Origin: a virus
Lineage: Duplodnaviria; Heunggongvirae; Uroviricota; Caudoviricetes
Virus record (IMG/VR): IMGVR_UViG_2737471992_000006
Reading direction: 5' to 3' (one strand)
Length of the DNA stretch: 45,327 nt
The number at the start of each line of letters is the position of its first letter. The first letter of the stretch is position 1. The notes below the pieces were generated by a model. The model saw nothing but the letters and a program-made list of their open reading frames with translations, had not been told where the DNA came from and searched no databases. The translations under genes were made by a program, and so were the position numbers. Positions 2,286-42,440 of the stretch are shown here, one piece after another.

Positions 2286-2534
2286 ATGCGTATTGAGATC
2301 TGCATAGCCAAAGAGAAAATGACTAAAATGCCAAACGGTGCTGTGGATGCGTTAAAGGAAGAATTAACTCGACGCATCAGTAAGCGTTATGACGATGTAG
2401 AGGTGATCGTAAAAGCCACCAGCAACGATGGCCTTTCTGTTACGCGCACCGCCGATAAAGATTCAGCTAAAACTTTTGTTCAGGAAACTCTGAAAGATAC
2501 CTGGGAGTCTGCTGACGAGTGGTTTGTTCATTAA
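2286..2534 (+). CDS. dinI: DinI-family DNA-damage-inducible protein (RecA modulator)
   Basis: 82 aa, acidic C-terminus typical of DinI; GAGGG Shine-Dalgarno; two LexA boxes upstream. Confidence 0.85.
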
Positions 2535-3220: not shown

Positions 3221-5283
3221 TCCACAACCTCCCCAAGCTGCGCATCTGTTAGCTCTTTATGCCAGAGACGAAAATTCCTCACATGCCCAAATAAATGGCG
3301 TAATCCTGCTGTAGTTTGTCCACCAATGCGAATGGTTGCTGTACTCCGGATATATTCCCATTTGGTTTTAGTTTCGCTGCTTAACTTACCGTTACTGACT
3401 ACACATGTGGACCGTTCGGACTTTACCCGCATACCAATAAGCATTTTTTCCAGCCCGGCATTTTCATTTATTCGTCGGTCTGAACCACCTATATCGCAAT
3501 ACGGAAAACCGTCGTACCCACCTGATGAACCAAACCCCATTACGATCCCCGCTCCGGTTTGATGACCGCCGGTATCAAAAACACGCGGCGCTACATTTGG
3601 CGTTTTATACCAGTTCTTATGTACCTCACAAAGAACCGTAAAAGGAAGATTATAAAGGTTATTCTTGATTGGGACTGTCACCATATCGCTTGCCCGCGTT
3701 GCCGGTGTCGTCCCCGTAACAATAAAAGATGATGTGCCTGTACCAGCCTCAATCTGTGGAGTGGTTACATCGAGATAATCCCCTGATGCAACCATCTGCC
3801 CTGTATCCGGAGAATACTGGACAAAACCACCAACCGTATTTTCTGTTGTATCTGCTTTTAATGTAGCCTCAAAAAATATCCAGCCAGTTGCATCATCCTT
3901 AACAGACCTTGCTGTAACACGGCTTGTCTGACCTGTCTTGCTAATTATGCGGGTGGTAAGGTTCAGGTTTGCTGCTCCTATTGATGTCCTTACCTCCCCA
4001 TCATAATGTTCAAATAAAATACGAACGGCGATATTATCAACTTCACTTTTTACCCGACAGGATATAGTTACATGCTTTTCGTCCCCTGAAGTATCAACCC
4101 CTCCGGTACTCGAATACAGTCCGATAATGGTATGCGCTTTACTTGTACCAACAATCGAATCCTGTACGACAAACCGGCCATAATTAAACCCGAAACTATC
4201 TGTGCCTGTTTCTGTAACGTCCAGTGAAGTTGACTTATTCCACTTCGAAGGGTCTGTACTGTTCTGGAAGAAGTTCGTTCTTTGTCCCTCAATAAGCAGG
4301 CCATCACACTCAAATCGCGGCTCATTAATTTCCGCCGTTTTCAGTTCGCCAGATTTGTTGATATATGTTGCCGTTGATGCGCGACTGAAATTAACCTGTT
4401 TATCACTGGCAACCTGAACCACATTATCACCAATCTTCACTTTTTTATAACCCGGAGAATAGCCCGTAATCATATCCAGCGAATCATTAAAGGGTATCCA
4501 CACATCCGGCAGCGGCTGTAAAACATATCTGTACGGCTCTGCTGTCTGGTTTGCGTATTCTCTGGCAGCATCTTCACTTGCTTTTGCTGCCGTCTGGCTT
4601 GCTGCCGATGCTTTCGCCGAGTTCGCCGCCGCTGTTTCGCTCACCTTTGCGTTGGCTTCACTGTCTTTGGCATTCGTCTCACTGGTTTTCGCTGCCGTCT
4701 GGCTGGATTTTGCGTTTTTTTCGCTGGCCTTTGTGGCTGTCTCGCTATTTTTCGCGCTGGTTTCTGATTTTTTGGCTGCTGTCGCGGAGTTTGCCGATGC
4801 AGTCTGCGAGGCCGCTGCCGCCTGTGCGCTGTTAGCTGCATTCGTTTCTGAGGTTTTCGCCGCATTCTTCGATGAGGCTGCTGCCGTTTCGGATTTCTTT
4901 GCCGCCGCTGCACTCTGTGATGACGCTCCGGCATGACGTGCCACTTCATTCACCATCAGCTCAAAACGGCGCAGTGCCTCCGGACGGGCATCATCCTCCG
5001 TCATGGCACCGAGAAAATCATTCAGCGTACCTGGTCTGGAACCTTCATAGACGGTAATGGTCCCGGCATGTGAAGGTGGAAAACCTTCAACCAGCAGGGT
5101 GACGCTGTACTGACCATGCTCAACATCCATGCTGTAACGCCCGGCTTCATCCGGATTTTCAGAGGCCACCGTGTTCACCAGTACCGTGGTGCTGTTACGC
5201 TTTGCCTTCAGTTGAATAGTGCAGTTCTGTATTGGTTTTCCCGCACCATCTTTCAGCACACCTGAGATTTTTACTGCTGCCAT
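3217..5283 (-). CDS. stf: side tail fibre protein (lambda Stf-like N-terminus, divergent C-terminal receptor-binding region)
   Basis: N-terminal ~120 aa closely resemble lambda Stf (MAAVKISGVLKDG...TITVYEGSRPGTLNDFL); ATG at 5283 preceded by GGAG; central Ala/Ser/Thr/Lys repeats; C-terminus resembles a lectin/LamG-like jelly-roll (my reading). Confidence 0.85.
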   Translation of the reverse strand: MAAVKISGVLKDGAGKPIQNCTIQLKAKRNSTTVLVNTVASENPDEAGRYSMDVEHGQYSVTLLVEGFPPSHAGTITVYEGSRPGTLNDFLGAMTEDDARPEALRRFELMVNEVARHAGASSQSAAAAKKSETAAASSKNAAKTSETNAANSAQAAAASQTASANSATAAKKSETSAKNSETATKASEKNAKSSQTAAKTSETNAKDSEANAKVSETAAANSAKASAASQTAAKASEDAAREYANQTAEPYRYVLQPLPDVWIPFNDSLDMITGYSPGYKKVKIGDNVVQVASDKQVNFSRASTATYINKSGELKTAEINEPRFECDGLLIEGQRTNFFQNSTDPSKWNKSTSLDVTETGTDSFGFNYGRFVVQDSIVGTSKAHTIIGLYSSTGGVDTSGDEKHVTISCRVKSEVDNIAVRILFEHYDGEVRTSIGAANLNLTTRIISKTGQTSRVTARSVKDDATGWIFFEATLKADTTENTVGGFVQYSPDTGQMVASGDYLDVTTPQIEAGTGTSSFIVTGTTPATRASDMVTVPIKNNLYNLPFTVLCEVHKNWYKTPNVAPRVFDTGGHQTGAGIVMGFGSSGGYDGFPYCDIGGSDRRINENAGLEKMLIGMRVKSERSTCVVSNGKLSSETKTKWEYIRSTATIRIGGQTTAGLRHLFGHVRNFRLWHKELTDAQLGEVVE
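4560..4950. repeat. in-frame tandem repeats encoding the KxSExxAxxS shaft of Stf
   Basis: Reiterated gc-rich units produce long spurious ORFs in all other frames here. Confidence 0.6.
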
Positions 5284-5347: not shown

Positions 5348-5947
5348 TCAGAACTTATAACCGACACCCACGATGAAACCGTCAGCGCGCCAGTCGCCAC
5401 TGCCGGAGCCTTCATAAGCAATATCAATGGCCACGGATTCGGTCGGGTTAAACTGCACGCCAGCCCCCCACGCCAGAGACGTGTTGCTGTGGCGATCGTC
5501 ATCACTTCCGGTCAGCACGTCGTGCGTTTTCCCCTTGTTGTCAGTTACGCGGAGATAATCCCCGGAGAACGTCGAAACACGGCTGTAAGCCACACCAGCC
5601 ATCGCATACGCGCTGAACCATTCATTCACGCGCACAGACGGCCCCGCCATTACGCTGAACCAGCGGTTACGCACGGAATCTTCATGCCAGCGGGTATCGC
5701 TGTAGTGCGTTTTTTTCTCATCTTCAGCATTGGCATAACTGAAGGACGTAATCAGCCCCAGCGTGTCCGTAAACTCATAACGGTATTTCACGTTAATCCC
5801 GTTCAGATTATCGCTGCCGGGAGCGTTCGTACGGGCATGAAGATACCCTGTGCTCAGTGTGGACTGATGTTCAGACGCCCATGCAGGCGCACCGGATACG
5901 GACAGACAGATGGCTGCGGACAAAATGGCTGCACAAACTTTACGCAT
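5348..5947 (-). CDS. lom: Lom outer-membrane protein (Ail/Lom family)
   Basis: 199 aa, near-identical in pattern to lambda Lom (signal peptide, ...GFIVGVGYKF end). Confidence 0.9.
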   Translation of the reverse strand: MRKVCAAILSAAICLSVSGAPAWASEHQSTLSTGYLHARTNAPGSDNLNGINVKYRYEFTDTLGLITSFSYANAEDEKKTHYSDTRWHEDSVRNRWFSVMAGPSVRVNEWFSAYAMAGVAYSRVSTFSGDYLRVTDNKGKTHDVLTGSDDDRHSNTSLAWGAGVQFNPTESVAIDIAYEGSGSGDWRADGFIVGVGYKF

Positions 5948-9773: not shown

Positions 9774-10421
9774 TCAGCGACCAATCACCACAACCTGACC
9801 ACCGTCCCCTTCGTCTGCCGTGCTGATCTCCTGAGAAACTACCCGCGACCCCACACGCATTTCACCGTACAGAACAGGCAAAACATTGCCCTGAGCAACC
9901 ATGTTATCCAGTGAGGAAAAATAGGTGTTCTGTTTGCCGTTATCTGTACTGGCTGCCGTGGACGTCCTGGCTTTCGGTGCCAGCATCTGCGCCACACCGC
10001 CCAGGATCATACTGGCCCCTGCCGCATACATGCCCGATACAGCCGCGGCACCCAGCCAGCCCACAGGGTTCCACCATGCCACCGCAATCAACGCCGCCCC
10101 CAGCACCACCTGAAACACACCGCCACTTTTAGCTCCCGCCAGACGCGGCACGATATGGATCACGGCACCATTTGCCAGCGGCTCATTAAGACGGGCAGAT
10201 AATTCGGTTTCACCTGCATCACGCCCGGCAATGCGCACCTGATACCAGCCGTCATTCAGTTTCTGACGAAACGCCGGGAGCTGTGTGGCCAGCGCCCGGA
10301 TGGCTTCGGCCCCCGTTTTCACACGAAGGTCGATGCGGCGGCCAAATCGTTGCAAATCCCCGTAAAGGCAGATGCGTGCCATGCCCGGTGACGCCAGAGG
10401 GAGTGTGTGCGTCGCTGCCAT
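9774..10421 (-). CDS. I: tail assembly protein I
   Basis: 215 aa, lambda gpI-like N- and C-termini (MAATHTLPLASPGMARICLYGDLQRF ... GGQVVVIGR). Confidence 0.85.
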   Translation of the reverse strand: MAATHTLPLASPGMARICLYGDLQRFGRRIDLRVKTGAEAIRALATQLPAFRQKLNDGWYQVRIAGRDAGETELSARLNEPLANGAVIHIVPRLAGAKSGGVFQVVLGAALIAVAWWNPVGWLGAAAVSGMYAAGASMILGGVAQMLAPKARTSTAASTDNGKQNTYFSSLDNMVAQGNVLPVLYGEMRVGSRVVSQEISTADEGDGGQVVVIGR

Positions 10422-11062
10422 TTGTCGGTATACCTCTCTCGTTTGCTCAGTTGTTCAGGAATATGGTGCAGCAGCTCGCCGTCACCACAGTAAATGGCGG
10501 CATGATTCGGCACCGATGAACCAAAACAGCACAGCAGCACATCGCCCGGCTGCGCCGCTGACAACGGCACCTGATACAGCCCTGTGGCCTCCAGATTATC
10601 CAGATAGAGATTCTGACCGTTACGCCACCAGTCATCCTCGCGGTGAAAATCCGGCATCTCAATCCCCGCCAGATGGTAAGCATCCCGGAACAGCGTGTAA
10701 CAGTCCGTCACCCCGTGATCAAAGCGCCGCCCGGTAAGATGCGGCACACAGCGGAACTTGTGAATCGCCCTCCGGCAGACCAGCCACCACGGCAAATCAC
10801 TCTGCACCTGCAGCCGCCGGTCGGCCTCACTCAGCCAGGGCAGACCACCGGGGTGGCTGTGGACCAGCGCCACAATCTCACCCTGCATTTCTGCCTGCAG
10901 CCAGTCTTCCGGCGACATCCGGAAATACGCCTCCGGCTCACCGGAGATATTCACGCAGGGAAAATATCTTTCCCCCTCCGGCGTTCTCACCACGAAGCCG
11001 CACGACTCCGCTGGCGCACATCGCCGGGCGTGCGCCAGAATCGCTGATTCTGTCTGTGTCAT
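10319..11062 (-). CDS. K: tail assembly protein K (NlpC/P60 + MPN-like)
   Basis: Lambda gpK-like from MTQTESAILAHARRC; ATG at 11062; the ORF-track start at 11137 is an upstream extension overlapping L. Confidence 0.85.
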   Translation of the reverse strand: MTQTESAILAHARRCAPAESCGFVVRTPEGERYFPCVNISGEPEAYFRMSPEDWLQAEMQGEIVALVHSHPGGLPWLSEADRRLQVQSDLPWWLVCRRAIHKFRCVPHLTGRRFDHGVTDCYTLFRDAYHLAGIEMPDFHREDDWWRNGQNLYLDNLEATGLYQVPLSAAQPGDVLLCCFGSSVPNHAAIYCGDGELLHHIPEQLSKRERYTDKWQRRTHSLWRHRAWHASAFTGICNDLAAASTFV

Positions 11063-11066
11063 GGGA

Positions 11067-11765
11067 TTACTGCGAAAGTTTGTTAATGGAAAGGAAGCCG
11101 CCAAAGTTGCCGACGTTATTGCGAAACTTACAACCACTCAGGCATTTGCTGCATTTATCCTTCGTGATATCGGACGTCGGCTGGTCATATTCATCAGCGA
11201 CAGCCGGACCGTGATAACCGCACTCATCACCGCGATAGGTCCAGGTGCAGGTATTAGCCAGCATGATGCGCCCCGGAAAAACAGCACCGTCCGTTTCCGT
11301 CGGCGTGGACAGTACAAAAGAGGCACTGACCGCGCTCAGTTCGCTGCACTGCTCGATGCGCCAGCGGCTGATCACCTCCTGCTCCGGATCGGCGTCACTG
11401 TTTCCGTTGACGAAGTTCACCGCATCCAGAAAACGGGCGTAAACCTTACGCCTGACCACCGTTCCGCCGACCAGACTCTGCAGGTCTTCCGCCATCCCGG
11501 TGACCATGCCGTGCAGGTTAGAAACCGTCAGTGTCGGACGGGCAGCACTGCCCTTGCCGTTCAGTTCAAATCCCGTCCCCTGAATGGGGTATGCCTGATA
11601 CTGCCACCCCTGCCAGGTAACCGGCTCACCTTTTTCGTTCTGCTCATTACAGAAAAAATAACGTTCACCACCGACCTCTGTCAGATCGATTTCCCAGAGC
11701 ACCACCTGGGCTGACTGAGTGAGGCGTGTCGTCTCATGATGTGTTTCCTGTGGAATATCCTGCAT
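11067..11765 (-). CDS. L: tail tip assembly protein L
   Basis: 232 aa, lambda gpL-like including the C-terminal Cys cluster. Confidence 0.9.
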   Translation of the reverse strand: MQDIPQETHHETTRLTQSAQVVLWEIDLTEVGGERYFFCNEQNEKGEPVTWQGWQYQAYPIQGTGFELNGKGSAARPTLTVSNLHGMVTGMAEDLQSLVGGTVVRRKVYARFLDAVNFVNGNSDADPEQEVISRWRIEQCSELSAVSASFVLSTPTETDGAVFPGRIMLANTCTWTYRGDECGYHGPAVADEYDQPTSDITKDKCSKCLSGCKFRNNVGNFGGFLSINKLSQ

Positions 11766-27837: not shown

Positions 27838-28890
27838 TTATTTCCCCACCAGCTCGTTTATCTCTTTCACTGTCTGGTTAAACCGCTCTGACTCAAGCTC
27901 AACACCTAAGGCCCGACGCCCCAGCGCCATTGCTGCTTTTATTGTGGAACCGGATCCCATAAAAAAATCAGCAACCAGATCACCAGGTCGACTACTGGCA
28001 TTGATTATTTGCCTGAGCATATCCGCCGGTTTCTCACACGGATGTTTACCCGGGTAGAACTGAACGGGTTTATGCATCCAGACATCGGTATAAGGCACGG
28101 AGACTGATACGGAGAAATAGCGCCGGAGAGATTTAAACTCATCCAGCAATTCAGAATATTTGCGATTCAGTGAATCATAAGATGCCACCAGCTGGTGGTG
28201 TGGTTGTTCCAGTTGTTGTTCCTGAAACTTCTCTGCCGCTATACGGGAAAACAGTGCCTGTAACTTCCGATAGTCAGCCTCATTCGGCAACTGCCACTGA
28301 CTGGCACCAAACCAGTGGGAAACCATATTTTTCTTACCTGTGGCTTCGGCAATTTGTTTTGCCGTTATACCCAGTTCGGCACGAGCATCCCTGAAATACG
28401 ATATCAGCGGTGCCATTATGTGCTGTTTGAGTTCCCTTTCTTTTGCCGCATAGCCGTCACTTTTGCCGCGATATGGCCCCTGGTAATGTTCAGCAAACAG
28501 AACGCGCTCTGTGGCAGGAAAATATGCGCGCAGACTTTCTTTATTACACCCATTCCAACGTCCGGACGGCTTCGCCCAGATGATATGGTTAAGCACGTTG
28601 AAACGTTCACGCATCATGATCTCAATATCAGATGCCAGGCGATGCCCACAGAACAGGTAAAGGCTTCCGGCAGGTTTTAACACCCGCCAGAACTGGGCCA
28701 GACAGTGGTCCAGCCACTTAAGGTAATCTTCGTCCCCTTTCCACTGATTGTCCCAGCCGTTGGGTTTCACCTTGAAGTACGGCGGATCGGTAACAATCAG
28801 GTCAATGGAATCATCAGGCAGGGACTGAATAAAATGCAGGCAATCAGCGTTGATTAAATCAACACTGTTTATTTTTACAGTATTTTTCAT
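27838..28890 (-). CDS. orphan DNA amino-methyltransferase, beta-class (DPPY before FxGxG)
   Basis: 350 aa; motif [10 protein letters not shown] near the N-terminus and AdoMet motif FFMGSGST near the C-terminus; no restriction partner nearby; weak Shine-Dalgarno. Confidence 0.8.
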
Positions 28891-30045: not shown

Positions 30046-30411
30046 CTAACGATCCATCTCTAGCTCAATTTCTAACATCATTAACATGCCATCAACTACA
30101 CCTTCAGCCTTTTGCAATAAACGCCCAACCCAGCAATCAGAACGCCCATGTTTACGGGCAAGCGCCATAAACGTCATACCACCTACATAATAATCCACTA
30201 ATAAATCGTGCAAATCGCTGTTGTTCTTTTTCAGGCGAGCCATGCATCCACAAATGATCATCGCGTCATCGTCACAACATTGCGGGCGGGATTTTACTTT
30301 TGAAGGGATTAGTCCTTTAAATCCTGCAGCAATAGACGACCAAGTGACATCCTCGTGATTATTTGCCACCCATGCCCCCCAACGTTCAAGAACCATTTGA
30401 ATATCACGCAT
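30046..30411 (-). CDS. Q: late-gene antiterminator Q (phage 21/82-type small Q)
   Basis: 121 aa from the ATG at 30411 (GGAG Shine-Dalgarno); [14 protein letters not shown]...CGCMARLKK pattern of Q21-family antiterminators. Confidence 0.8.
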
Positions 30412-30428
30412 CAACTTTCTCCACAAAA

Positions 30429-31424
30429 TCAGGCCAGCACGCCAATTGCCAGCGCACGATCGATAAAACGAAATATCAGCTCCAGCTGGGAGCCATACTT
30501 CTCTTCAAATGCCACGGTATCCGCATGCAGCTCGTCGTGATGCTTTCTGCACAAAGGCAACACAAAAAGGTCATGCGCTTTTGTTCCCATTCCACCCTGA
30601 CCGTGACCTATCAGGTGGTGGGGATCATCAGCAGGCTTTCCACAACATGCACACGGCTGTGTCTTAACCCAGCGCGTGTACTTTTCATTAACCCAGCGGC
30701 GGCGTTTTGGGCGTAACATAAAAGACTCCGGCGACTCCGGATCCACTTTCAGCGCCAGCACCTTTTTTGCCTTATCCTGGATGATGCTGGTGGCAGGAAC
30801 CGAAGGCACAAGGTCACTTTCCCGGGTGACAGACGGCACAACAGGCTTTGGTAATCTCAGTGCCTTACGGGCTGCACTTTCCGGTAAGGCATCCGCCAGG
30901 TCATTACGAATCAGCCACCAGCACAGTTCCGGCATTGTCACAACGTGACTATCATCAAAACCGAGATCCCGACGCACAACAGACAACACCCAGCGGGCAC
31001 AGTTATCCGTTGCCATTGATTCCAGCCGTTCCGTGAACTGATCGCGCAGCTGGTTATCGCAGTGCCAGCACAGACGGATTGCGCCCGGAGCGTGTCGCAT
31101 TGTGGTCATGTTCTCGCTGTGCCAGTCGGAATGAGGCCACTGGCAGCCTTTTTCACGAAGTAACCAGCTTTCAAGACATTCCACGCCACCAGCACGACGG
31201 ATCACTGCCTCATTGCGGAACACGGCCCGAACGGCAGGATCATCCGCCAGCGGTTGTGATGCCGCCGGAACGGCACCACTGGCGAAAGATGAATAACGTT
31301 CCGGCTCAGGCTCCAGCAGAACACGCCCCTGCATAAACAGGGGCATCAGCTCTGAACCTGGCCTGAACAATACGATCCCCATACGCGGGGCAATTTCAGG
31401 GGTCAGTAGTGCTCTCACGGTCAC
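30429..31424 (-). CDS. DUF968-family protein with C-terminal HNH-like zinc motif
   Basis: C-terminal CACCGKP..DPHHL...[12 protein letters not shown]; usual position upstream of Q. Start uncertain (GTG at 31424 or ATG at 31382). Confidence 0.7.
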
Positions 31425-31425
31425 C

Positions 31426-32235
31426 TCAATGAACGGTATCGAGCAGCTTTAACAGCTCAGGGAATCGGGATTCGAAGAAATGCGGCTGCGTCTCGCGCGG
31501 ATTTGCAGGACTGGTGATGTTCTTGCCGAACATGCAGCCTTTCGCCGTCAGCGACCAGAATTTTTTGATGTTGTTAATCGCGGTACGGCTGTATCGTTCG
31601 CGTTGTTCAACGATCCCCAGCTTCACCATCTGGTGATATGCCTGATTAGCCGTCAGGCGGATACCATACTGCTTCAGCAGTGCACTCAGCGACAGCGTGG
31701 GGCGACTTGAGCCATCAGGCGCGTCAGCAGGAGCATCAATGGCATAGCGTGGTGCCAGATTCGGTAAGCCAACAGCCTCCTGAAGCTTCTGACAGGCTCC
31801 AAGCACTGATGAGTTAGACAGATTTAATTCCCGGCGCATAAAGTCCAGCAGGATCACGCCAGCCTGCATCTTGTCAGCAGCCTGTCCGGATAATTTTTCC
31901 GGTGCGCTGGTTACCATGTCGAAAGTACGGATCACCTTCAGATGGAATGACGGGCTGATCCACATTGCATAGGCATACACCAGTTCTTTGCAGACATACG
32001 TCCCCTGGTTATTTCCGCCATTAATGACGCTAACTGGTTGATTTTGTTCCAGAGGCGGAATTCCACCCTCGGTGAAAAGTTGTTCAATCAATTCACAGGT
32101 TTGCTTATTGGAGAGCCAGTATTTCGGGCGGTTTTTTTGTTCTCCCCCGGCAGCCCTGTGCAGATCGTTCAGGCTGTAACGCCCATAAGCATCACGACGA
32201 ACTTCAATACCATCAATGACCATCAGATTATTCAT
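31426..32235 (-). CDS. KilA-N domain protein
   Basis: 269 aa from the ATG at 32235 (GAGGAG Shine-Dalgarno); N-terminal KilA-N-like region (VIDGIEVRRDAYGRYSLNDLHRAAG...KYWLSNKQT). Confidence 0.75.
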   Translation of the reverse strand: MNNLMVIDGIEVRRDAYGRYSLNDLHRAAGGEQKNRPKYWLSNKQTCELIEQLFTEGGIPPLEQNQPVSVINGGNNQGTYVCKELVYAYAMWISPSFHLKVIRTFDMVTSAPEKLSGQAADKMQAGVILLDFMRRELNLSNSSVLGACQKLQEAVGLPNLAPRYAIDAPADAPDGSSRPTLSLSALLKQYGIRLTANQAYHQMVKLGIVEQRERYSRTAINNIKKFWSLTAKGCMFGKNITSPANPRETQPHFFESRFPELLKLLDTVH

Positions 32236-32254
32236 ACTTCGTTTCTCCTCTTGA

Positions 32255-32644
32255 TCAGGCGGCTGCACCCGCCGTTTTCTCGTACTTACTGATGGTGATC
32301 TCGACCTTCCCTTTCGGGATAACCGGTCCCCACTCCACCAGCATTCTTTTCACCTGTCTGTCGTCTTCCCACACACCCGCGTGGGTCAACGCGTCAAACA
32401 GCGCCTTGTTATAGTTGTCCAGATCGCGGATCCGGTTATCCGGAGGAAACAACACGATCTCCACTGCAGCAGGTGCCGACGTTGGTTTTGGCAGACGACG
32501 TAACTGCTCAACTATTGCTGCGCACGCCGCGCTCTGAAATTTTCGCCCCGCCGCGCTTATCAGGCTCTTACCAGCAAATGCCCCTTTGTTGGGGTGTCGC
32601 CAGTACGTGTTCACGCTGGGCGGGAAAGGCAGGATCAGCTTCAT
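32255..32644 (-). CDS. rusA: RusA-family Holliday-junction resolvase
   Basis: 129 aa; LPFPPSVNTYWRH ... RDLDNYNKALFDALT pattern. Confidence 0.85.
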   Translation of the reverse strand: MKLILPFPPSVNTYWRHPNKGAFAGKSLISAAGRKFQSAACAAIVEQLRRLPKPTSAPAAVEIVLFPPDNRIRDLDNYNKALFDALTHAGVWEDDRQVKRMLVEWGPVIPKGKVEITISKYEKTAGAAA

Positions 32645-32967
32645 ACTTTCAGGCCTCTCTCATGTAACCAGTGGGCTGCACGCAGCCTGGCGTTTTCCTC
32701 ACCGGCAAGCAGTGAGCGGATAATCCCGACCGCCTCGCTGTCGTCGTCCTTCACCGCGGTATGAAGCGTGATACCCCGGGCCACGCCACGCTTTATCGTG
32801 ATGACGCCTTTTTTCTCCAGTGCGCGAAGATGTTCCACCGCTGCATTCACTGAACGGTATCCCAGCATGGTTGCCACCTCCTGATTGGTTGGCGGGAAGC
32901 CACGTTCTTTCTGGTAAGAAATCAGCATATCCAGCACCTGCTGCTGGCATTGAGTTAACGTCGTCAT
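32641..32967 (-). CDS. LexA N-terminal DNA-binding-domain homologue lacking the S24 peptidase domain
   Basis: 108 aa; strong resemblance to the LexA N-terminal domain (QQ.VLD.I......GFPPT..E.A..LG.RS.NAA.EHL.AL..KGVI.I..G.ARGI.L); no Ser/Lys dyad region. Confidence 0.7.
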   Translation of the reverse strand: MTTLTQCQQQVLDMLISYQKERGFPPTNQEVATMLGYRSVNAAVEHLRALEKKGVITIKRGVARGITLHTAVKDDDSEAVGIIRSLLAGEENARLRAAHWLHERGLKV

Positions 32968-33617
32968 GCCGCCATCTCCCTGACCAGTTTTTCCGCCTGC
33001 TGGCGAACCTGCGCCAGAAACGCCTCACCACATGCCTCAAGTTCATCACGCCCGATGTAGCTGATTGCCGGTCCCTTCCAGGTCTTGTCGAAAACAGCAA
33101 TAGCACCAGCGAAGAAAGCGCCTGTCGGCACCTGCTTCTCGTCCTTCGGTATAAACCAGGCAGGCAGTTCAAAACCAATACGCCCGCGAATAAAAGCAAT
33201 ATGATCTGCATCTTCCGGCCACCACACTTCGCTGGTGGCCGCTTTGATCAGGAAAACATAGCGCCCGCCCTTATCACGCATGGCACTGGCATGTTTCATG
33301 ATGTAACGCATGCCGGTGATGTATTGCCCCTCATGCTGACTGGCGCGGCTGTATGGGGGATTACCAAAGGCAGCACCTTTAAGCTCCGCAAGACGTTCTG
33401 ACCAGTCATGCGCCAGCGCGTTATCTTCCGCCGTGTAATACGCGGCACATTTGGCGTTATCACCGTCAGTAAACAGATCCAGAACAAACGGGCCAAACAG
33501 GGTGTTAATTCCCCAGAAAATGTTGTCCGGCGTGCGCCACTGATCGCCCACTTCCTTCAGTTCATGGGCTGGTTTGTTCCGCAGTTCCACCAGCGCCTGG
33601 CAATATTTATTACTCAT
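32964..33617 (-). CDS. phage Dam-type N6-adenine DNA methyltransferase (NPPY)
   Basis: 217 aa from the ATG at 33617; motif AFGNPPYS. Confidence 0.75.
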   Translation of the reverse strand: MSNKYCQALVELRNKPAHELKEVGDQWRTPDNIFWGINTLFGPFVLDLFTDGDNAKCAAYYTAEDNALAHDWSERLAELKGAAFGNPPYSRASQHEGQYITGMRYIMKHASAMRDKGGRYVFLIKAATSEVWWPEDADHIAFIRGRIGFELPAWFIPKDEKQVPTGAFFAGAIAVFDKTWKGPAISYIGRDELEACGEAFLAQVRQQAEKLVREMAA

Positions 33618-34105
33618 TAAGCCCCCACGTAATTCCCTGAGAGATACCACTCTTCACCTGATGCAGCCCGCTTACTGCTTTTCCGTAAACACCGTTCACG
33701 ACGCGCCAGAAAATTGTTTCGTTCTGGCTGGGAGTGGCTTTCACGGAATGCCGCCATCCACACGGTTGCAGCACGACGGTATAAGCCCCTGGACTCCAGT
33801 TCTTCAGCCTGGCGGGTCAGGCACAAAATCACCCGTGGATCGTTAGTGCCGACATAGAAATTGCGCACAGGTCTGGTTTCTCGAACTGGTTGTGGTTCCG
33901 GTTCCTGCGCTCTCTCAGTCAGGCGTGGGAAATGTCTGCGTGTATCTCCTTCACAACGGTGAGCCACACGCCCACTCTGACGTAACTTGCTTGCTGACTG
34001 CAGAACGCGCTGCCGTGAGTAACCTGCAAAAGCATCCGCAATGTCTCCGGAAGTACACCCCGGATGGGCTTCAATGAATTTCTGAACTTCATTCAAAAGA
34101 CTCAT
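33617..34105 (-). CDS. PerC-like transcriptional activator candidate
   Basis: 162 aa; C-terminal LESRGLYRRAATVWMAAF resembles the PerC/Pch motif as I recall it; provisional. Confidence 0.4.
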   Translation of the reverse strand: MSLLNEVQKFIEAHPGCTSGDIADAFAGYSRQRVLQSASKLRQSGRVAHRCEGDTRRHFPRLTERAQEPEPQPVRETRPVRNFYVGTNDPRVILCLTRQAEELESRGLYRRAATVWMAAFRESHSQPERNNFLARRERCLRKSSKRAASGEEWYLSGNYVGA

Positions 34106-34107
34106 GA

Positions 34108-34926
34108 TCACCCCCTGAATCCTGCCGGGATCTGGCTGTAGTCCACGTTGTCGTAACTGGCTTTGAAGTACGGGTCCTCGCGTCTGGCTGCAGATACCGC
34201 AGGAACTTCCCAGGATTCTTCGAAATGACGATCCGGACCAAAGAACGTGACAGCCTGTTTCACAAATTGTGTGCCGCTGTTACCCATCGCAGATACCCAG
34301 CCCGCGTAGCGTTTCACACCTTCCAGCATGGTTTCGGGGTTTACTCCCTCATTCAAACGGGCTTTCCAGGCTTTGAAGGCTGCAGATTTTGAATTGCCAC
34401 CAGCACGTTTGGGATATGCCAGCCATGCCTGCTCAAACTCCGGAGAGTATTCCGGTCGGTTTGAACGAACTCGCACGGACTCATCAACTGATGCACCAAC
34501 AGCTATTGGTTCATTGACTGGTTCTTTGACTGGTTCAAAAGAGTGACTGGTTCTGGGTGAATCTCCTGCACTACCCCCTGGTGCAACTCCTGCACTACCT
34601 GGTGAATTTGCTGCACCAGATAGTGAATTATTTGCACTACCCCCTAGTGAATCTCCTGCACCATCCAGATGAAGGAGATAGATATTACTTGAGTTACCTT
34701 TTTCACCTTTCCGGGTGACTTTTTTTACCAGCCCGGACTCACAGAGGGCCGCAATATGATTCATCACAGAACGTTTGCTAATCTCGCACTGATCAGCGAT
34801 ATGCTGATAGCTGGGCCAGCACTCACCCTGATCGCTGGCATTATCAGCCAGCTTGATCAGAACTAGTTTTCGCAATGGATTACCCACTCGAATTTTCATC
34901 GCTTTCACCATCAGCTCCATACTCAT
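34108..34926 (-). CDS. replication initiator (lambda O-like, iteron-binding) containing the origin
   Basis: 272 aa; winged-helix N-terminus, Gly/Ser/Ala-rich linker encoded by the iterons, C-terminal domain; GGAGGTG Shine-Dalgarno. Confidence 0.75.
   Translation of the reverse strand: MSMELMVKAMKIRVGNPLRKLVLIKLADNASDQGECWPSYQHIADQCEISKRSVMNHIAALCESGLVKKVTRKGEKGNSSNIYLLHLDGAGDSLGGSANNSLSGAANSPGSAGVAPGGSAGDSPRTSHSFEPVKEPVNEPIAVGASVDESVRVRSNRPEYSPEFEQAWLAYPKRAGGNSKSAAFKAWKARLNEGVNPETMLEGVKRYAGWVSAMGNSGTQFVKQAVTFFGPDRHFEESWEVPAVSAARREDPYFKASYDNVDYSQIPAGFRG
34511..34705. repeat. origin of replication: 3x GACTGGTTC and ~5 iterons (CTGCACTACC..TGGTGAAT at ~22-bp spacing) plus AT-rich tract
   Basis: Direct repeats at 34515..34556 and 34567..34672, then an AT-rich segment at 34673..34705, all inside the O-like gene as in ori-lambda. 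Confidence 0.6.
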
Positions 34927-35159: not shown

Positions 35160-35988
35160 GACGATGCCCTCCGCTGATATTCAGGAGACGGTGAATATGA
35201 AAATTAGCCTTATCCGCCAGACGAATACGTTCAGCCTGCAAGTTAAGAAGGGTTTCTACCAAAACCTGATGCGCCTGCGGATCCGAAAGAGTTACCTTGC
35301 GCAGAGCACGTAGTGCAGTTGTTACATAACTGAGTTTATGTAAGTCTTCATCATTCAGACGAGTGAGGGCTGGGACAGTAGCCATGATGGCAGCCTCCTT
35401 GATCGGTGAAATACTTCCATCACCGGAAACGCCAATTTCGCTGGTGGTGAACTGAACGGGGTTGGCGTAACCGGTGATCAAGGAAACCGGCGCATCTTTC
35501 GATGCCCCCGCCCAGCCCACCATAACTTTGATGTGAGCAAATGCGGACGATAAAAAAGACGCTGGCGCGTCATATATCGCCTTGATCAATTCCAGGACGC
35601 CAATCCCGGCACCCGCTTTATAAGGTGCCTGAACAGTGTAACGTCCCGGAATGGCAGAATCAATGTGCTGGTGGTCCTTCACACTCAACAAAATCACGCC
35701 TGAATTTCCACAAAGGACTAAAGCACTCATGCGGGTAGTCTTTGCGAAGATAGATAACGCGCTGTGTTTCTGGCTCCCAACGAATAACATGAACATAAAG
35801 TCCTCTTCTGTCACGAAACCAGCGGTTAAGTTCCTGCACAACTCGCCCCCCACAGTCAGGTAAAGTTCTCTGTGGTTACTTACAGCCAGGTGATTTGGTA
35901 ATCTGCATTCATGCCGTAACAACAGGTGTTCAGCGACGCTGGCCACCAGCTGTTGCGACAAACGGTTATTTGCCGTTAAACTGTTCAT
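35152..35988 (-). CDS. hypothetical 278-aa protein in the early-right operon
   Basis: ATG overlaps the upstream stop (ATGA); no recognisable motif (no Walker A box). Confidence 0.6.
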   Translation of the reverse strand: MNSLTANNRLSQQLVASVAEHLLLRHECRLPNHLAVSNHRELYLTVGGELCRNLTAGFVTEEDFMFMLFVGSQKHSALSIFAKTTRMSALVLCGNSGVILLSVKDHQHIDSAIPGRYTVQAPYKAGAGIGVLELIKAIYDAPASFLSSAFAHIKVMVGWAGASKDAPVSLITGYANPVQFTTSEIGVSGDGSISPIKEAAIMATVPALTRLNDEDLHKLSYVTTALRALRKVTLSDPQAHQVLVETLLNLQAERIRLADKANFHIHRLLNISGGHRHA

Positions 35989-36548
35989 GCGTTAGTTTCT
36001 CCACAGACACAAAACGCCACGACGCCCGGAGCTGCACACTCGCGGGCGTCACTCTTTTCTGGAGCGCAAAAGATTTTGTAGACCAGTGCTGCATGCTCCT
36101 GGAGCTTCGAAATTGACAGATACAACTCATCATTAATTGCTGTCTGCTCGTGTGGCTCCACTACCCCATCTTCGATTGCCGAACGAATCTGCTTTGAGTA
36201 ACTCCCGATCTGTTCGATGACTTCCAGCAGGCGCTGGTTTATATCGGCGTTCTCTACTTCCTCAATTTCAGGAAGCGATACAAACACCCCACCAGCAGAC
36301 TGTGCGACAGCATCCGCAATGTAGTGAGTGCCAGCCGCGCGCTGTAAAATCATTGCCCATCCCAGCGGGAAAATCTGATCGCCATCGGCACGAAGGCGGT
36401 TAAATAATGCGTTCTCTGTTACATCCAGCCACTCAGCAGCTTCAGCGTAACCCCCCGGCAACGCCGCGATAGTTTTTCTGACAGCTTTCACGTACCACTC
36501 AGGCTGTTTTTCTACTTTCCAGTGATGCTTACCCACGGTTAGCCTCAT
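35985..36548 (-). CDS. hypothetical 187-aa protein, first gene after cro (possible CII-like/YdaT-like regulator)
   Basis: Position and operon coupling only; the YdaT assignment is a guess. Start may be the GTG at 36536. Confidence 0.5.
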   Translation of the reverse strand: MRLTVGKHHWKVEKQPEWYVKAVRKTIAALPGGYAEAAEWLDVTENALFNRLRADGDQIFPLGWAMILQRAAGTHYIADAVAQSAGGVFVSLPEIEEVENADINQRLLEVIEQIGSYSKQIRSAIEDGVVEPHEQTAINDELYLSISKLQEHAALVYKIFCAPEKSDARECAAPGVVAFCVCGETNA

Positions 36549-36780: not shown

Positions 36781-36870
36781 ACAATATGTACCTCCGATAT
36801 ACATATTACATGATTGAGATGAACCTTCAAGGTACTTGTACCCTATCGGTACAAAGGTTTTAATTTCGTT
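36781..36870. promoter_or_regulatory. divergent immunity promoter/operator region
   Basis: 90 bp between the cro-like and repressor genes with GTAC-centred inverted repeats (GGTAC-TT-GTACC, ATGTACC, CGGTAC). Confidence 0.5.
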
Positions 36871-37545
36871 ATGAAAACAGTCCATGACATCCGGCGGTCT
36901 AACGCCAGAAAACTGAGAGATGGTGTTGGCGGGAATTCTTCCTTTGCCACCATGATTGATCGCGAGCCAACCCAGACCAGCAGGTTTATGGGAGATGGTG
37001 CTACTAAAAATATCGGTGACAGCATGGCACGGCACATCGAAAAATGTTTCGACCTGCCTGTCGGATGGCTTGATCAAGAACACCAGACAACAAACATCAC
37101 AAAAAAACCTGATGTTTCAATTACTAACAAACAAATAACGTTAGTCCCTGTCATATCATGGGTACAGGCCGGAGCATGGAAAGAAGTTGGCTATTCTGAG
37201 GTTGATTTGAGCACAGCAGAAACTTATCCCTGCCCTGTACCCTGTGGCGAAATGACTTATATCTTGCGGGTGATTGGTGATTCAATGATTGATGAGTACC
37301 GCCCGGGAGACATGATTTTTGTAGATCCTGAAGTCCCTGCCTGCCACGGTGACGACGTTATTGCATTGATGCACGATACGGGCGAAACCACCTTTAAGCG
37401 GTTGATAGAAGATGGAACACAGCGTTACCTCAAAGCATTAAACCCAAACTGGCCTGAACCTTACATTAAGATCAACGGTAATTGCTCTATAATTGGTACA
37501 GTAATTTTCTCAGGAAAACCAAGAAGATACAAAATAAAGGCCTAA
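36871..37545 (+). CDS. CI-type prophage repressor with S24 (LexA-like) autopeptidase domain
   Basis: 224 aa; N-terminal helix-turn-helix ending ...IEKCFDLPVGWLD; C-terminal domain with the Ser nucleophile in VIGDSM and a downstream Lys. Confidence 0.85.
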   Translation: MKTVHDIRRSNARKLRDGVGGNSSFATMIDREPTQTSRFMGDGATKNIGDSMARHIEKCFDLPVGWLDQEHQTTNITKKPDVSITNKQITLVPVISWVQAGAWKEVGYSEVDLSTAETYPCPVPCGEMTYILRVIGDSMIDEYRPGDMIFVDPEVPACHGDDVIALMHDTGETTFKRLIEDGTQRYLKALNPNWPEPYIKINGNCSIIGTVIFSGKPRRYKIKA

Positions 37546-37583: not shown

Positions 37584-37617
37584 TTGACAATGTACCCTTG
37601 AGATACATAATGTATCT
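37584..37617 (+). promoter_or_regulatory. strong sigma70 promoter (PL analogue) with an overlapping 17-bp perfect palindrome
   Basis: TTGACA (37584..37589), 16-nt spacer, CATAAT (37606..37611); palindrome AGATACAT-A-ATGTATCT at 37601..37617; ATGTACC motif shared with the operator region. Confidence 0.55.
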
Positions 37618-40981: not shown

Positions 40982-41567
40982 TTATCAGGCGCTACGGGAA
41001 CGTTATTCACCTAAGCCAGTACCTGAATGCTCTGTTTGTGGCGAGGAAATGTCAATACAGCGTATATCTGGAGCACATGTCACTTATGCCTGCTCCGGTT
41101 ATGGTGGTGATGGAGATTTCAAAATTGGTCGCACACTTGCCGACGAGCATTATGAAAAATCACGCGTAACAGTAGTTGATGACAGTGACCCTGATGTGAT
41201 TGCACTACTGGACGAACTGGAGGCAGCAAAATTAAAACTCAACGAGCAGCGTGAGTATTACGAAGGTGTTATCTCGGATGGGAGTAAGCGTATTGCTGAA
41301 CTGGAAGCACGGGAAATAAAACCAGCCAAAGGCGAAGTTCTTGTCGTTGTCTCTGGTTTTACTGGTTGCGGGAAAAGCGCCATTGCCGGGGAAATAGAAA
41401 TTGCGATGAAAGCTATTGGTGTGCCGGTTCAATGGACTAATGGCGATGCAGAAAAGCATATGACCGGCGCTGACTGGCTGACAGCGATTGAGATGTACAA
41501 ACCAAATGTGCGCATCGTGGAAGTTAATGTGTCACGCGCCGCAGGCATTCGCATCAAAGGAGAGTGA
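40968..41567 (+). CDS. hypothetical protein with N-terminal CxxC zinc-ribbon-like motif, coiled coil and C-terminal Walker-A-like P-loop
   Basis: 199 aa; GTG start after AAGGAGG; CSVCGEE near the N-terminus; GFTGCGKS near the C-terminus. Confidence 0.6.
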   Translation: MSEIDYQALRERYSPKPVPECSVCGEEMSIQRISGAHVTYACSGYGGDGDFKIGRTLADEHYEKSRVTVVDDSDPDVIALLDELEAAKLKLNEQREYYEGVISDGSKRIAELEAREIKPAKGEVLVVVSGFTGCGKSAIAGEIEIAMKAIGVPVQWTNGDAEKHMTGADWLTAIEMYKPNVRIVEVNVSRAAGIRIKGE

Positions 41568-41568
41568 G

Positions 41569-41760
41569 ATGAACGGACAAATATCAATTGTTCGACCGGG
41601 AGCATGTGACGATTGCGAGATACGAATGATTATTCGTCTGGCGAGGGGGAAAACAATAACTGCTCTCATTACTCCTGAAAATCTCGCATTAGCATTAACA
41701 GGAAAGTCAGACCTGCCAGTAGAGCTAAAGCTGCGAAATATTGAGATTAAAGTGAAATAG
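41569..41760 (+). CDS. hypothetical small protein
   Basis: 63 aa; ATG at 41569, 2 nt after the upstream stop, with AAAGGAGAG Shine-Dalgarno. Confidence 0.5.
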   Translation: MNGQISIVRPGACDDCEIRMIIRLARGKTITALITPENLALALTGKSDLPVELKLRNIEIKVK

Positions 41761-41762
41761 TT

Positions 41763-42440
41763 ATGAATACTCTTACCAAAGAATGGTTACAGAACACGAT
41801 TACCGGAATTGAGTCGATAATAGACGATAAATCGTTTGTATGTAGTGAAATAGCATTCGAAATAGGTCAGGTTAACAACATACTTACCGCATTTAAAATT
41901 GCACTGGCATCGCTGGCAGCAAAACCGGTGGTTTACATGTGGGATAGCGAAAGAAAAGATATTGATGCCCCTGGGTATTATCGGACTGAGCATTTAGTGT
42001 TCGCTGAGAGTAGTGTTAAGAAATGGGGAGGACGAGTTGTTCCACTTTACACCGCCCCGCCAGCGACGGTAGTACCGGATGAACGTGCAGCTTTCAATGC
42101 CTGGAACAACGACGAGAACCTACCCATAGCTGGTGTCGGCGCAAAAAACGCTGCCTGGTTAGCTTGGCAAGCCCGCGCTGAGTTGGGCCGCTCGTTAGCC
42201 GTAAACTCTCCGGTAACTCCGGATGGTTGGATAAGCTGTAGTGATCGAATGCCTGAAAAGGGCCAGAACGTGCTTATTTCGGTGAATTTCGATAGCTCTC
42301 TGGTTGAACCGCTAATATGCTCCGCACGCTATACCGGAAGCACCTTTCGGCGCGGAGATGCAACGATTAAGCCGGGTAATGGTATTGAGCAAGCAACTCA
42401 CTGGATGCCGCTACCGGAACCGCCGCAGGAGGTGAAGTGA
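41763..42440 (+). CDS. Ead/Ea22-like protein with C-terminal DUF551-like domain
   Basis: 225 aa; C-terminal ...THWMPLPEPP motif typical of DUF551 as I recall it. Confidence 0.65.
   Translation: MNTLTKEWLQNTITGIESIIDDKSFVCSEIAFEIGQVNNILTAFKIALASLAAKPVVYMWDSERKDIDAPGYYRTEHLVFAESSVKKWGGRVVPLYTAPPATVVPDERAAFNAWNNDENLPIAGVGAKNAAWLAWQARAELGRSLAVNSPVTPDGWISCSDRMPEKGQNVLISVNFDSSLVEPLICSARYTGSTFRRGDATIKPGNGIEQATHWMPLPEPPQEVK

Follow-up and report, generated by a model that had tools for sequence, protein, structure and literature searches.

A widespread prophage gene encoding a LexA-type DNA-binding head with a helical tail in place of the autopeptidase domain

The window analysed here, that is, the whole stretch of 45,327 nucleotides of IMG/VR virus record IMGVR_UViG_2737471992_000006 (Caudoviricetes), is a lambdoid prophage in dusA (1-1038) with its integrase at 1127-2224, and the subject of this report is a short lexA-like gene on its minus strand. 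As an earlier note made from the sequence alone had described, the open reading frame (ORF) of 108 amino acids at 32641-32967 contains a LexA DNA-binding domain and no autopeptidase domain. Alignments and a predicted structure together establish that the encoded protein carries a LexA-specific winged helix, in which the wing is intact and the recognition helix largely so, and that the autopeptidase is missing. The gene and the two parts of its product are placed as follows.

32641..32967, minus strand: lexA-like gene, ATG start, 108 amino acids plus stop (RefSeq WP_000210164.1, 'LexA family protein')
32761..32967, minus strand: LexA-type winged helix-turn-helix (HTH), residues 1-69, from a gap-free LexA alignment, an AlphaFold2 model and Foldseek
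32644..32760, minus strand: linker and two-helix hairpin, residues 70-108, from the AlphaFold2 model and family conservation

Residues 1-65 match all 65 positions of the Pfam model LexA_DNA_bind (PF01726, E=2.9e-19, 69 bits against a cutoff of 23.7), and the best phmmer match in the PDB is the N-terminal domain of Escherichia coli LexA (1lea, E=7e-16), aligned without gaps from residue 2 to 69 in both proteins. An AlphaFold2 model of the monomer, computed from 17 family sequences (mean predicted local distance difference test score, pLDDT, 83.6; predicted template modelling score, pTM, 0.57), has a LexA-like topology with helices at residues 6-22, 28-35 and 40-52 and strands at 56-58 and 66-68, placing the recognition helix at residues 40-52 (SVNAAVEHLRAL) and the wing at R64-G65-I66. 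In Foldseek, the model superposes on the LexA-DNA complex 3jso with a root-mean-square deviation of 0.9-1.0 Å over 67-68 residues at 50-51% identity. LexA structures are the only strong fold matches, the best winged helices of other families having E-values of at least 9e-3, which indicates that the similarity is specific to LexA rather than that of a general winged helix, the outcome that the earlier note had named as fatal to its proposal. The NCBIfam LexA equivalog TIGR00498 is matched only over model positions 1-91 of 203, at 70.8 bits and thus below its cutoff of 110.95, and no S24 peptidase domain was found in the 108-residue protein, which has no match to PF00717. Since the S24 autopeptidase is absent, RecA-stimulated self-cleavage cannot inactivate the lexA-like protein, in agreement with the immunity to cleavage proposed previously. 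The proposed alignment with LexA along the whole length stands for residues 1-69 (64% of the protein) but not for residues 70-108, which form a family-specific helical tail.

In the model, the tail consists of a linker at residues 71-75 with pLDDT below 50 (disordered or flexible) and two helices, H75-88 and H93-103, with pLDDT of 87-89, which have no counterpart in LexA; a search of the PDB with the tail sequence gave no significant match. In family alignments A97 and L101 never vary, and both helices keep their hydrophobic pattern down to 39% identity, a degree of conservation indicating that the tail contributes to the function of the protein. Conserved hydrophobic residues on a hairpin of two helices call for a surface to pack against, and the tail may serve as a dimerisation or partner-binding element in place of the S24 domain, the simplest model being a homodimer held together by a four-helix bundle. 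Weak whole-chain Foldseek matches were obtained to winged-HTH regulators with a short helical C-terminus, namely 2g9w, 3tqn, 2ek5 and 6sbs (E ~1e-2, template modelling score 0.4-0.5). HMMER pairs A88-G89 of the tail ('LLAGE') with A84-G85 of LexA ('VAAGE'); the idea of a cleavage-site mimic was rejected, because the AG pair is missing in distant relatives and sits in a predicted helix. A counterpart of the LexA hinge cleavage site Ala84-Gly85 is therefore lacking, as is a protease domain that could cut it.

The lexA-like gene is a member of the early-right operon of the prophage, whose genes were confirmed by Pfam and by a prophage of E. coli NR3736 that is 99.8% identical and annotated in RefSeq. 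In the order of transcription, the operon comprises the following.

Minus strand: cro-like ymfT, the first gene of the early-right operon, followed by a CII/CP76-like gene (35985-36548) and then DUF4222/ash
34108-34926, minus strand: HTH_36/DnaD_N replication protein (Pfam match)
33617-34111, minus strand: PerC/yfdN (Pfam match)
32964..33650, minus strand: phage N6-adenine methyltransferase (Dam), directly upstream of the lexA-like gene (PF05869, E=1.1e-45)
32255..32644, minus strand: RusA Holliday-junction resolvase, directly downstream of the lexA-like gene (PF05866, E=1.3e-14)
31426-32268, minus strand: KilA-N protein (Pfam match)
30429-31424, minus strand: DUF968/HNH (Pfam match)
30046-30426, minus strand: Q antiterminator (Pfam match)

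The ATG of the lexA-like gene overlaps the stop codon of dam, and its own stop codon overlaps the ATG of rusA, each overlap having the form ATGA, so that the gene is translationally coupled to both neighbours in a compact operon. The longest dam ORF begins with GTG at 33650 (228 amino acids); RefSeq and the SfV annotation use the ATG at 33617 (217 amino acids), which overlaps the stop codon of perC/yfdN. A consensus scan found no promoter upstream of the lexA-like gene on the minus strand, and the putative dam promoter annotated in SfV was rejected as a source of independent transcription, being weak and having a -35 element that is not conserved in the window. A scan of the window for CTGT-N8-ACAG likewise detected no SOS box upstream of or near the gene. 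Expression would most likely occur by read-through from PR upon induction or infection, and the position in the PR operon with neither an SOS box of its own nor a convincing promoter suggests that the protein is probably not made in the lysogen. Several public records name the Dam protein 'phosphoadenosine phosphosulfate reductase', apparently an annotation error passed on from record to record. In the NR3736 chromosome (L001:37437-42072), the dusA-integrated prophage lies only ~4 kb from the host lexA-dinF operon (dusA remnant 37437-37541, lexA 41464-42072), a proximity that is probably a mere consequence of the map position of dusA.

Among 5,426 complete E. coli genomes, 2,233 (41%) carry the lexA-like gene at a nucleotide identity of at least 90%, with up to 4 copies per genome; these copies always lie between phage dam and rusA, and the ORF is intact in 2,223 genomes at a coverage of at least 80%. 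At least 50 deposited phages carry the gene at a protein identity of at least 95%, including SfV (orf42), SfII, SfIV, mEp460, the cdtI phage, 1720a-02 and phages converting for Stx2a, Stx2c and Stx2k. The protein matches PHROG 362 over its full length (positions 1-106 of 106, E=1.4e-59), and the truncated LexA architecture is already captured in existing annotation as a LexA family protein. Record names vary from 'transcriptional repressor' and 'LexA-like protein' to the misnomers 'SOS-response repressor and protease LexA' and 'RecA-mediated autopeptidases', and no functional study of the enterobacterial lexA-like gene or of the phage copies in PHROG 362 was found in the searchable full-text literature. 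Database matches that appear to be fusions of Dam with the LexA-like protein (PF05869 plus PF01726, 179-185 amino acids) are shorter than both genes combined and were judged to be frameshift or assembly artefacts.

Beyond the Escherichia/Shigella/Citrobacter/Hafnia clade, an exhaustive HMMER search recovered relatives with 39-51% identity that span the full length of the protein and include the tail; they come from prophages of Cronobacter, Enterobacter, Cedecea/Klebsiella, Salmonella and Kosakonia. Across the family alignment, S39, N41, K53, G54, I56, R64-G65-I66, A97 and L101 are invariant or nearly so. Comparison of sequences and gene order thus shows that purifying selection acts on the lexA-like gene, which is mobile and very widespread. 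Wherever a contig extends far enough, the order is lexA-like gene, sometimes an ORF of 66-67 amino acids, rusA, DUF968 and a Q-type antiterminator, except that rusA is missing from L009, and in 5 of 9 contexts the gene directly preceding the lexA-like one encodes a DNA methyltransferase. Other HMMER matches (P0132, P0133, P0148, P0152, P0153, P0156, P0160, P0164 and others) are proteins of 140-350 amino acids with tandem LexA DNA-binding domains, apparently without S24, and may represent single-chain 'dimers' of the LexA head.

In four of the sister-clade prophages, a near-consensus SOS box stands in a promoter-like context ahead of the transcription unit to which the lexA-like gene belongs.

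L005 (Enterobacter/Cedecea clade), 5560-5579: SOS box ACCTGTACATTCATACAGTA
L009, 513-532: SOS box TACTGTTTATTTATACAGTA, followed by dinI, orf75, the lexA-like gene, orf67, DUF968 and Q
L010, 4907-4942: SOS box TACTGTATAAAAATACAGTT and a second, overlapping box, followed by a RecA C-domain ORF, orf77, the lexA-like gene, orf66 and rusA
L014 (Salmonella, AP025685.1), 5561-5580: a terminator and then SOS box TACTGTTTATATATACAGTG, followed by orf75, the lexA-like gene, rusA, DUF968 and Q
L005:5713-5961, L009:797-1024, L010:5387-5620 and L014:5724-5951: ORF of 75-82 amino acids upstream of the lexA-like gene

These boxes indicate that the gene is SOS-induced in some branches of the family, where its neighbours encode proteins acting on RecA, and this SOS theme keeps alive the idea of an SOS modulator put forward in the earlier note. 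Because the units driven from the boxes in L005, L009, L010 and L014 reach Q, host LexA would directly gate expression of the Q antiterminator in these prophages. The ORFs of 75-82 amino acids form a family of their own (53-58% identity, no Pfam match) that in the sister clades always directly precedes the lexA-like gene and that is absent from the E. coli clade; their product may be a partner of the lexA-like protein. In L010 (metagenomic contig ERR15978288_14525), an ORF of 95 amino acids behind the two boxes, within 4907-5262, consists of the RecA C-terminal domain alone (PF21096, E=9e-10), so that two SOS regulators, each cut down to a single domain, adjoin in one apparent operon, and the RecA C-domain ORF may encode a RecA decoy. 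Two opposite-strand gene pairs in these prophages were also observed. In L014, AcrVA2-like and Cas1-domain genes lie downstream of the late methyltransferase gene (9794-11390), an unusual anti-CRISPR/Cas1 pairing in a prophage, and in L005, genes for a CdiI_2-like immunity protein and a bacterial RNase A-like toxin (3863-5232) form a moron that splits the early operon just before the SOS-box promoter.

The residues through which E. coli LexA contacts DNA, taken here from a secondary source, are Ser39, Asn41, Ala42, Glu44 and Glu45 (PMC3091678), and the role of Asn41 is also described in PMC5999292. The protein of the window keeps S39, N41, A42 and E45, i.e. four of the five contacts, and has Val instead of Glu at position 44; its recognition helix SVNAAVEHLRAL differs from that of LexA (SPNAAEEHLKAL) only at positions 40, 44 and 48 (P40V, E44V, K48R), and would be compatible with a CTGT-like half-site. 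Family-wide, none of 13 representatives with the tail has Glu at position 44, compared with 14 of 20 full-length LexA proteins among the same matches. In the tail-bearing representatives, position 44 is occupied by V, T, F, A, L, Y or N, position 45 by E, D, G, L or I, and position 42 by A, S, T or G, with examples of altered helices in P0088 (SVNTIAGH), P0172 (SSSNAVLLH) and P0207 (SQNTVFIH). All hosts of the tail family are Enterobacteriaceae, which have a single SOS box in common and a LexA helix that does not vary. Contact positions that vary although the hosts share one SOS box fit diversifying, phage-specific operators better than a common host target, and since a protein dedicated to host SOS boxes would be expected to keep the LexA helix, this variation argues against SOS-box occupancy as the function of the family. 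The proposal that the protein occupies SOS boxes thus draws some support from the four retained contacts, whereas the replacement of Glu44 in 13 of 13 representatives and the variation of the other contacts between prophages speak against it. The members that lie behind SOS boxes have the most altered helices, so that these boxes are most simply read as operators for host LexA and not as autoregulatory sites.

Other regulators and candidate operators in the window are given below.

2286-2534, plus strand: prophage dinI (PF06183, E=1.2e-19)
2227-2242 and 2255-2270: two SOS boxes (CTGT-N8-ACAG) preceding dinI
36871-37545, plus strand: CI-type immunity repressor with Peptidase_S24, of the RecA-cleavable type (PF00717, E=1.5e-26)
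36787, 36837 and 37591: CI/Cro operators, TGTAC..ATACA dyads
28865..28880 (20-bp span 28863-28882): SOS-like box in codons 3-9 of a late-operon N6/N4 DNA methyltransferase gene (MK[N/T]TVKINSV)

The two LexA boxes in front of dinI and the cleavable CI-type repressor, both pointed out in the earlier note, were recovered; a direct reading of the CI translation shows the Ala-Gly site and the GDSM and K motifs. Dyads of the form TGTAC(C)-N7..9-(G/A)TACA flank cI (36787-36859 and 37591-37609), two of them between cro and cI and the third at a strong TTGACA/CATAAT promoter-like site (37584-37611), and these three are probably the OR and OL operators of the CI/Cro pair. The lexA-like gene lies in the nin region, 4 kb from CI, and has neither the combination of HTH and S24 nor the divergent orientation to cro that define a CI-type repressor. 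As the prophage possesses its own CI/Cro pair and operators, the lexA-like protein is not the immunity repressor, and the suggestion of a prophage-specific repressor is excluded in that sense. The accompanying picture of layered SOS control is fair as regards gene content, but the lexA-like gene belongs to the PR operon, has no SOS box or convincing promoter of its own and is probably silent in the lysogen.

The motif CTGT-N8-ACAG occurs 4 times in the window (two at dinI, one at 35870 and one at 28865) against an expectation of 0.59. The copy at 35870 was rejected as an operator: it is intergenic in RefSeq but lies just past the conserved ATG (ATGAACAGTTTAAC) of an SfV orf37-type ORF, and thus in a probable coding region, has a G+C-containing spacer and is not conserved in L002 and L003. 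The copy at 28865 reads TACTGTAAAAATAAACAGTG on the coding strand, with 4 mismatches to the 20-bp consensus, in a methyltransferase gene downstream of Q and tR'; SfV and a Salmonella prophage have kept both the site and the protein sequence around it (L008 carries the site at 34170 and L014 at 8739). It is a candidate LexA-type site, although coding constraint may be what holds it. The operator search in the window covered perfect 6+6 dyads and, for enrichment, all 4+4 dyads with spacers of 2-12. TGCC-N8-GGCA, with 9 occurrences against 1.7 expected, was discarded because it is scattered through coding sequence and fails multiple-test correction.

Collectively, we tentatively prefer, with somewhat less than even confidence, the reading that the gene encodes a RecA-insensitive, LexA-derived and phage-specific regulator of the PR delayed-early operon with shifted specificity. 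The hairpin would replace the LexA C-terminal domain as the dimeriser, and the dimer would bind a palindromic operator. The protein would be made only while PR is transcribed, after induction or infection and hence during lytic development. Its operator would be related to the host CTGT-N8-ACAG but probably different from the SOS box, because Glu44 is replaced throughout the family and other contacts differ between prophages. It would act as a RecA-independent transcription factor of the phage, like gp6 of the tectivirus GIL01 discussed below, and not as a general SOS silencer. Several observations weigh against this reading. The recognition helix is only three changes away from that of E. coli LexA, so that binding to SOS boxes may be retained; the dyad search yielded no candidate non-SOS operator, the recurrent dyads in the window being the CI/Cro operators and the SOS-like boxes; and dimerisation through the tail is derived from a monomer model (pTM 0.57). 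In addition, the Q and late-promoter modules differ between the near-identical carriers SfV and the window, making a late-promoter role like that of gp6 unlikely in detail.

A rather unlikely rival is an uncleavable LexA mimic acting on canonical SOS boxes, which would re-repress the SOS regulon in the lytic phase once host LexA has been cleaved, its targets including prophage dinI, recA, SOS toxins, colicin lysis genes and antirepressors encoded by competing prophages. Such a role would fit the identity of ~50% to the host LexA N-terminal domain and the retention of Ser39, Asn41, Ala42, Glu45, His46, Leu47 and R64-G65-I66, as well as the excess of CTGT-N8-ACAG in the window; the SOS cassettes of the sister clades, which combine near-consensus boxes with dinI (L009) or the RecA C-domain ORF (L010), would suit an anti-SOS function. 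The free N-terminal fragment of LexA, as Neher et al. reportedly found in 2003, has residual repressor activity unless ClpXP removes it. However, Glu44 is replaced in all 13 tail-family representatives, the helices of P0172 and P0207, whose genes follow canonical SOS boxes, are strongly altered, the helix is not conserved as in LexA although every host belongs to the Enterobacteriaceae, and the window gene has no SOS box nearby; moreover, spacing specificity hinges on the geometry of a dimer, and the structure modelled here is a monomer. A bolder version, which we consider more doubtful still, is an SOS off-switch present in ~40% of E. coli genomes, namely a tail-dimerised, uncleavable LexA mimic that re-occupies SOS boxes at lysis while activated RecA (RecA*) is still present. 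If true, recA, SOS toxins, colicin lysis genes and the LexA-controlled antirepressors of competing prophages would all be shut down by it, and the sister clades would hold an SOS-induced anti-SOS cassette with DinI or a RecA C-domain decoy.

It is improbable that the protein is instead a DNA-binding accessory of RusA, DUF968/HNH or the DNA methyltransferases, with the tail docking on one of these or on a host protein. The gene order invites this view, as rusA follows directly in all relatives examined but L009, its start codon frequently overlapping the preceding stop codon, DUF968 comes next in all contigs of sufficient length and a DNA methyltransferase gene often lies directly upstream, and a hairpin with exposed hydrophobic residues could equally bind a partner. 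The same order may reflect only the conserved layout of the nin region in the lambdoid lineage, though, and many phages that carry RusA have no lexA-like gene; conservation is highest in the recognition helix and the wing, the pattern that a sequence-specific binder should show. Being a shortened paralogue of a host gene, and situated in an accessory region of mosaic make-up, the gene could also be a decaying, functionless remnant of a captured lexA, but this is very improbable and effectively refuted by conservation at the sequence level: the ORF is intact in the 2,223 E. coli genomes mentioned above and coupled to both neighbours, and full-length relatives, including the non-LexA tail, are kept down to 39% identity in at least 8 genera with conserved synteny.

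The distinction between a phage-specific regulator and an SOS-box binder matters since DNA-damage responses, mutagenesis, persistence, and the induction of prophages and Shiga toxin all have their master switch in the cleavage of LexA, and a cleavage-proof LexA head is present in 41% of complete E. coli genomes, with Stx2-converting phages among the carriers. Binding to SOS-type boxes would make the protein a widespread, unrecognised modifier of SOS dynamics and prophage competition, and its importance would be considerably higher. Binding to an operator of its own, as in the preferred reading, would make it the second independent case, after GIL01 gp6, of a LexA head serving as a private phage transcription factor.

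Compared with E. coli LexA (1lea, 3jso), the lexA-like protein shares the winged-helix fold, about half of residues 1-69, the RGI wing and four of the five contacts, whereas it lacks the S24 autopeptidase and dimerisation domain together with Ser119 and Lys156, has Val in place of Glu44 and ends in an unrelated hairpin; its gene belongs to a prophage early operon, while lexA is an autoregulated host gene. The architecture of a winged HTH followed by C-terminal helices is also found in the BlaI/MecI-like Rv1846c (2g9w) and the YtrA-type GntR proteins (3tqn, 2ek5, 6sbs), but these matches are weak, the DNA-binding domains come from other winged-HTH families and no sequence relationship exists. 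The members of PHROG 362 and the RefSeq 'LexA family protein' entries (SfV orf42, SfII, SfIV, mEp460, cdtI, Stx2a/Stx2c/Stx2k) are this very gene, 95-100% identical at the protein level and likewise located between dam and rusA. The closest characterised parallel is gp6 of the Bacillus thuringiensis tectivirus GIL01, a truncated LexA homologue of 66 amino acids that serves as an activator at the late promoter P3 (Fornelos et al. 2018, PMC6182141) and binds GaCACAnnTGTGaC, which is not a LexA box (PMC6182141). Both are phage-encoded LexA DNA-binding domains without the cleavage domain. However, gp6 has no tail, the host phyla and virus types differ, and BLASTP gave no alignment between the two proteins at E<=100; the lack of detectable pairwise similarity indicates independent truncations of different host LexAs, the present one from a gammaproteobacterial LexA. 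The LexA-repressed early promoter that is a feature of the gp6 system is absent from the window but present in L005, L009, L010 and L014, and late control in the window is exerted by Q antitermination, no gp6-like site having been found in the dyad searches there. Among the known phage-encoded truncated LexA homologues, the lexA-like protein is thus an independently evolved, tail-bearing case that has already been annotated.

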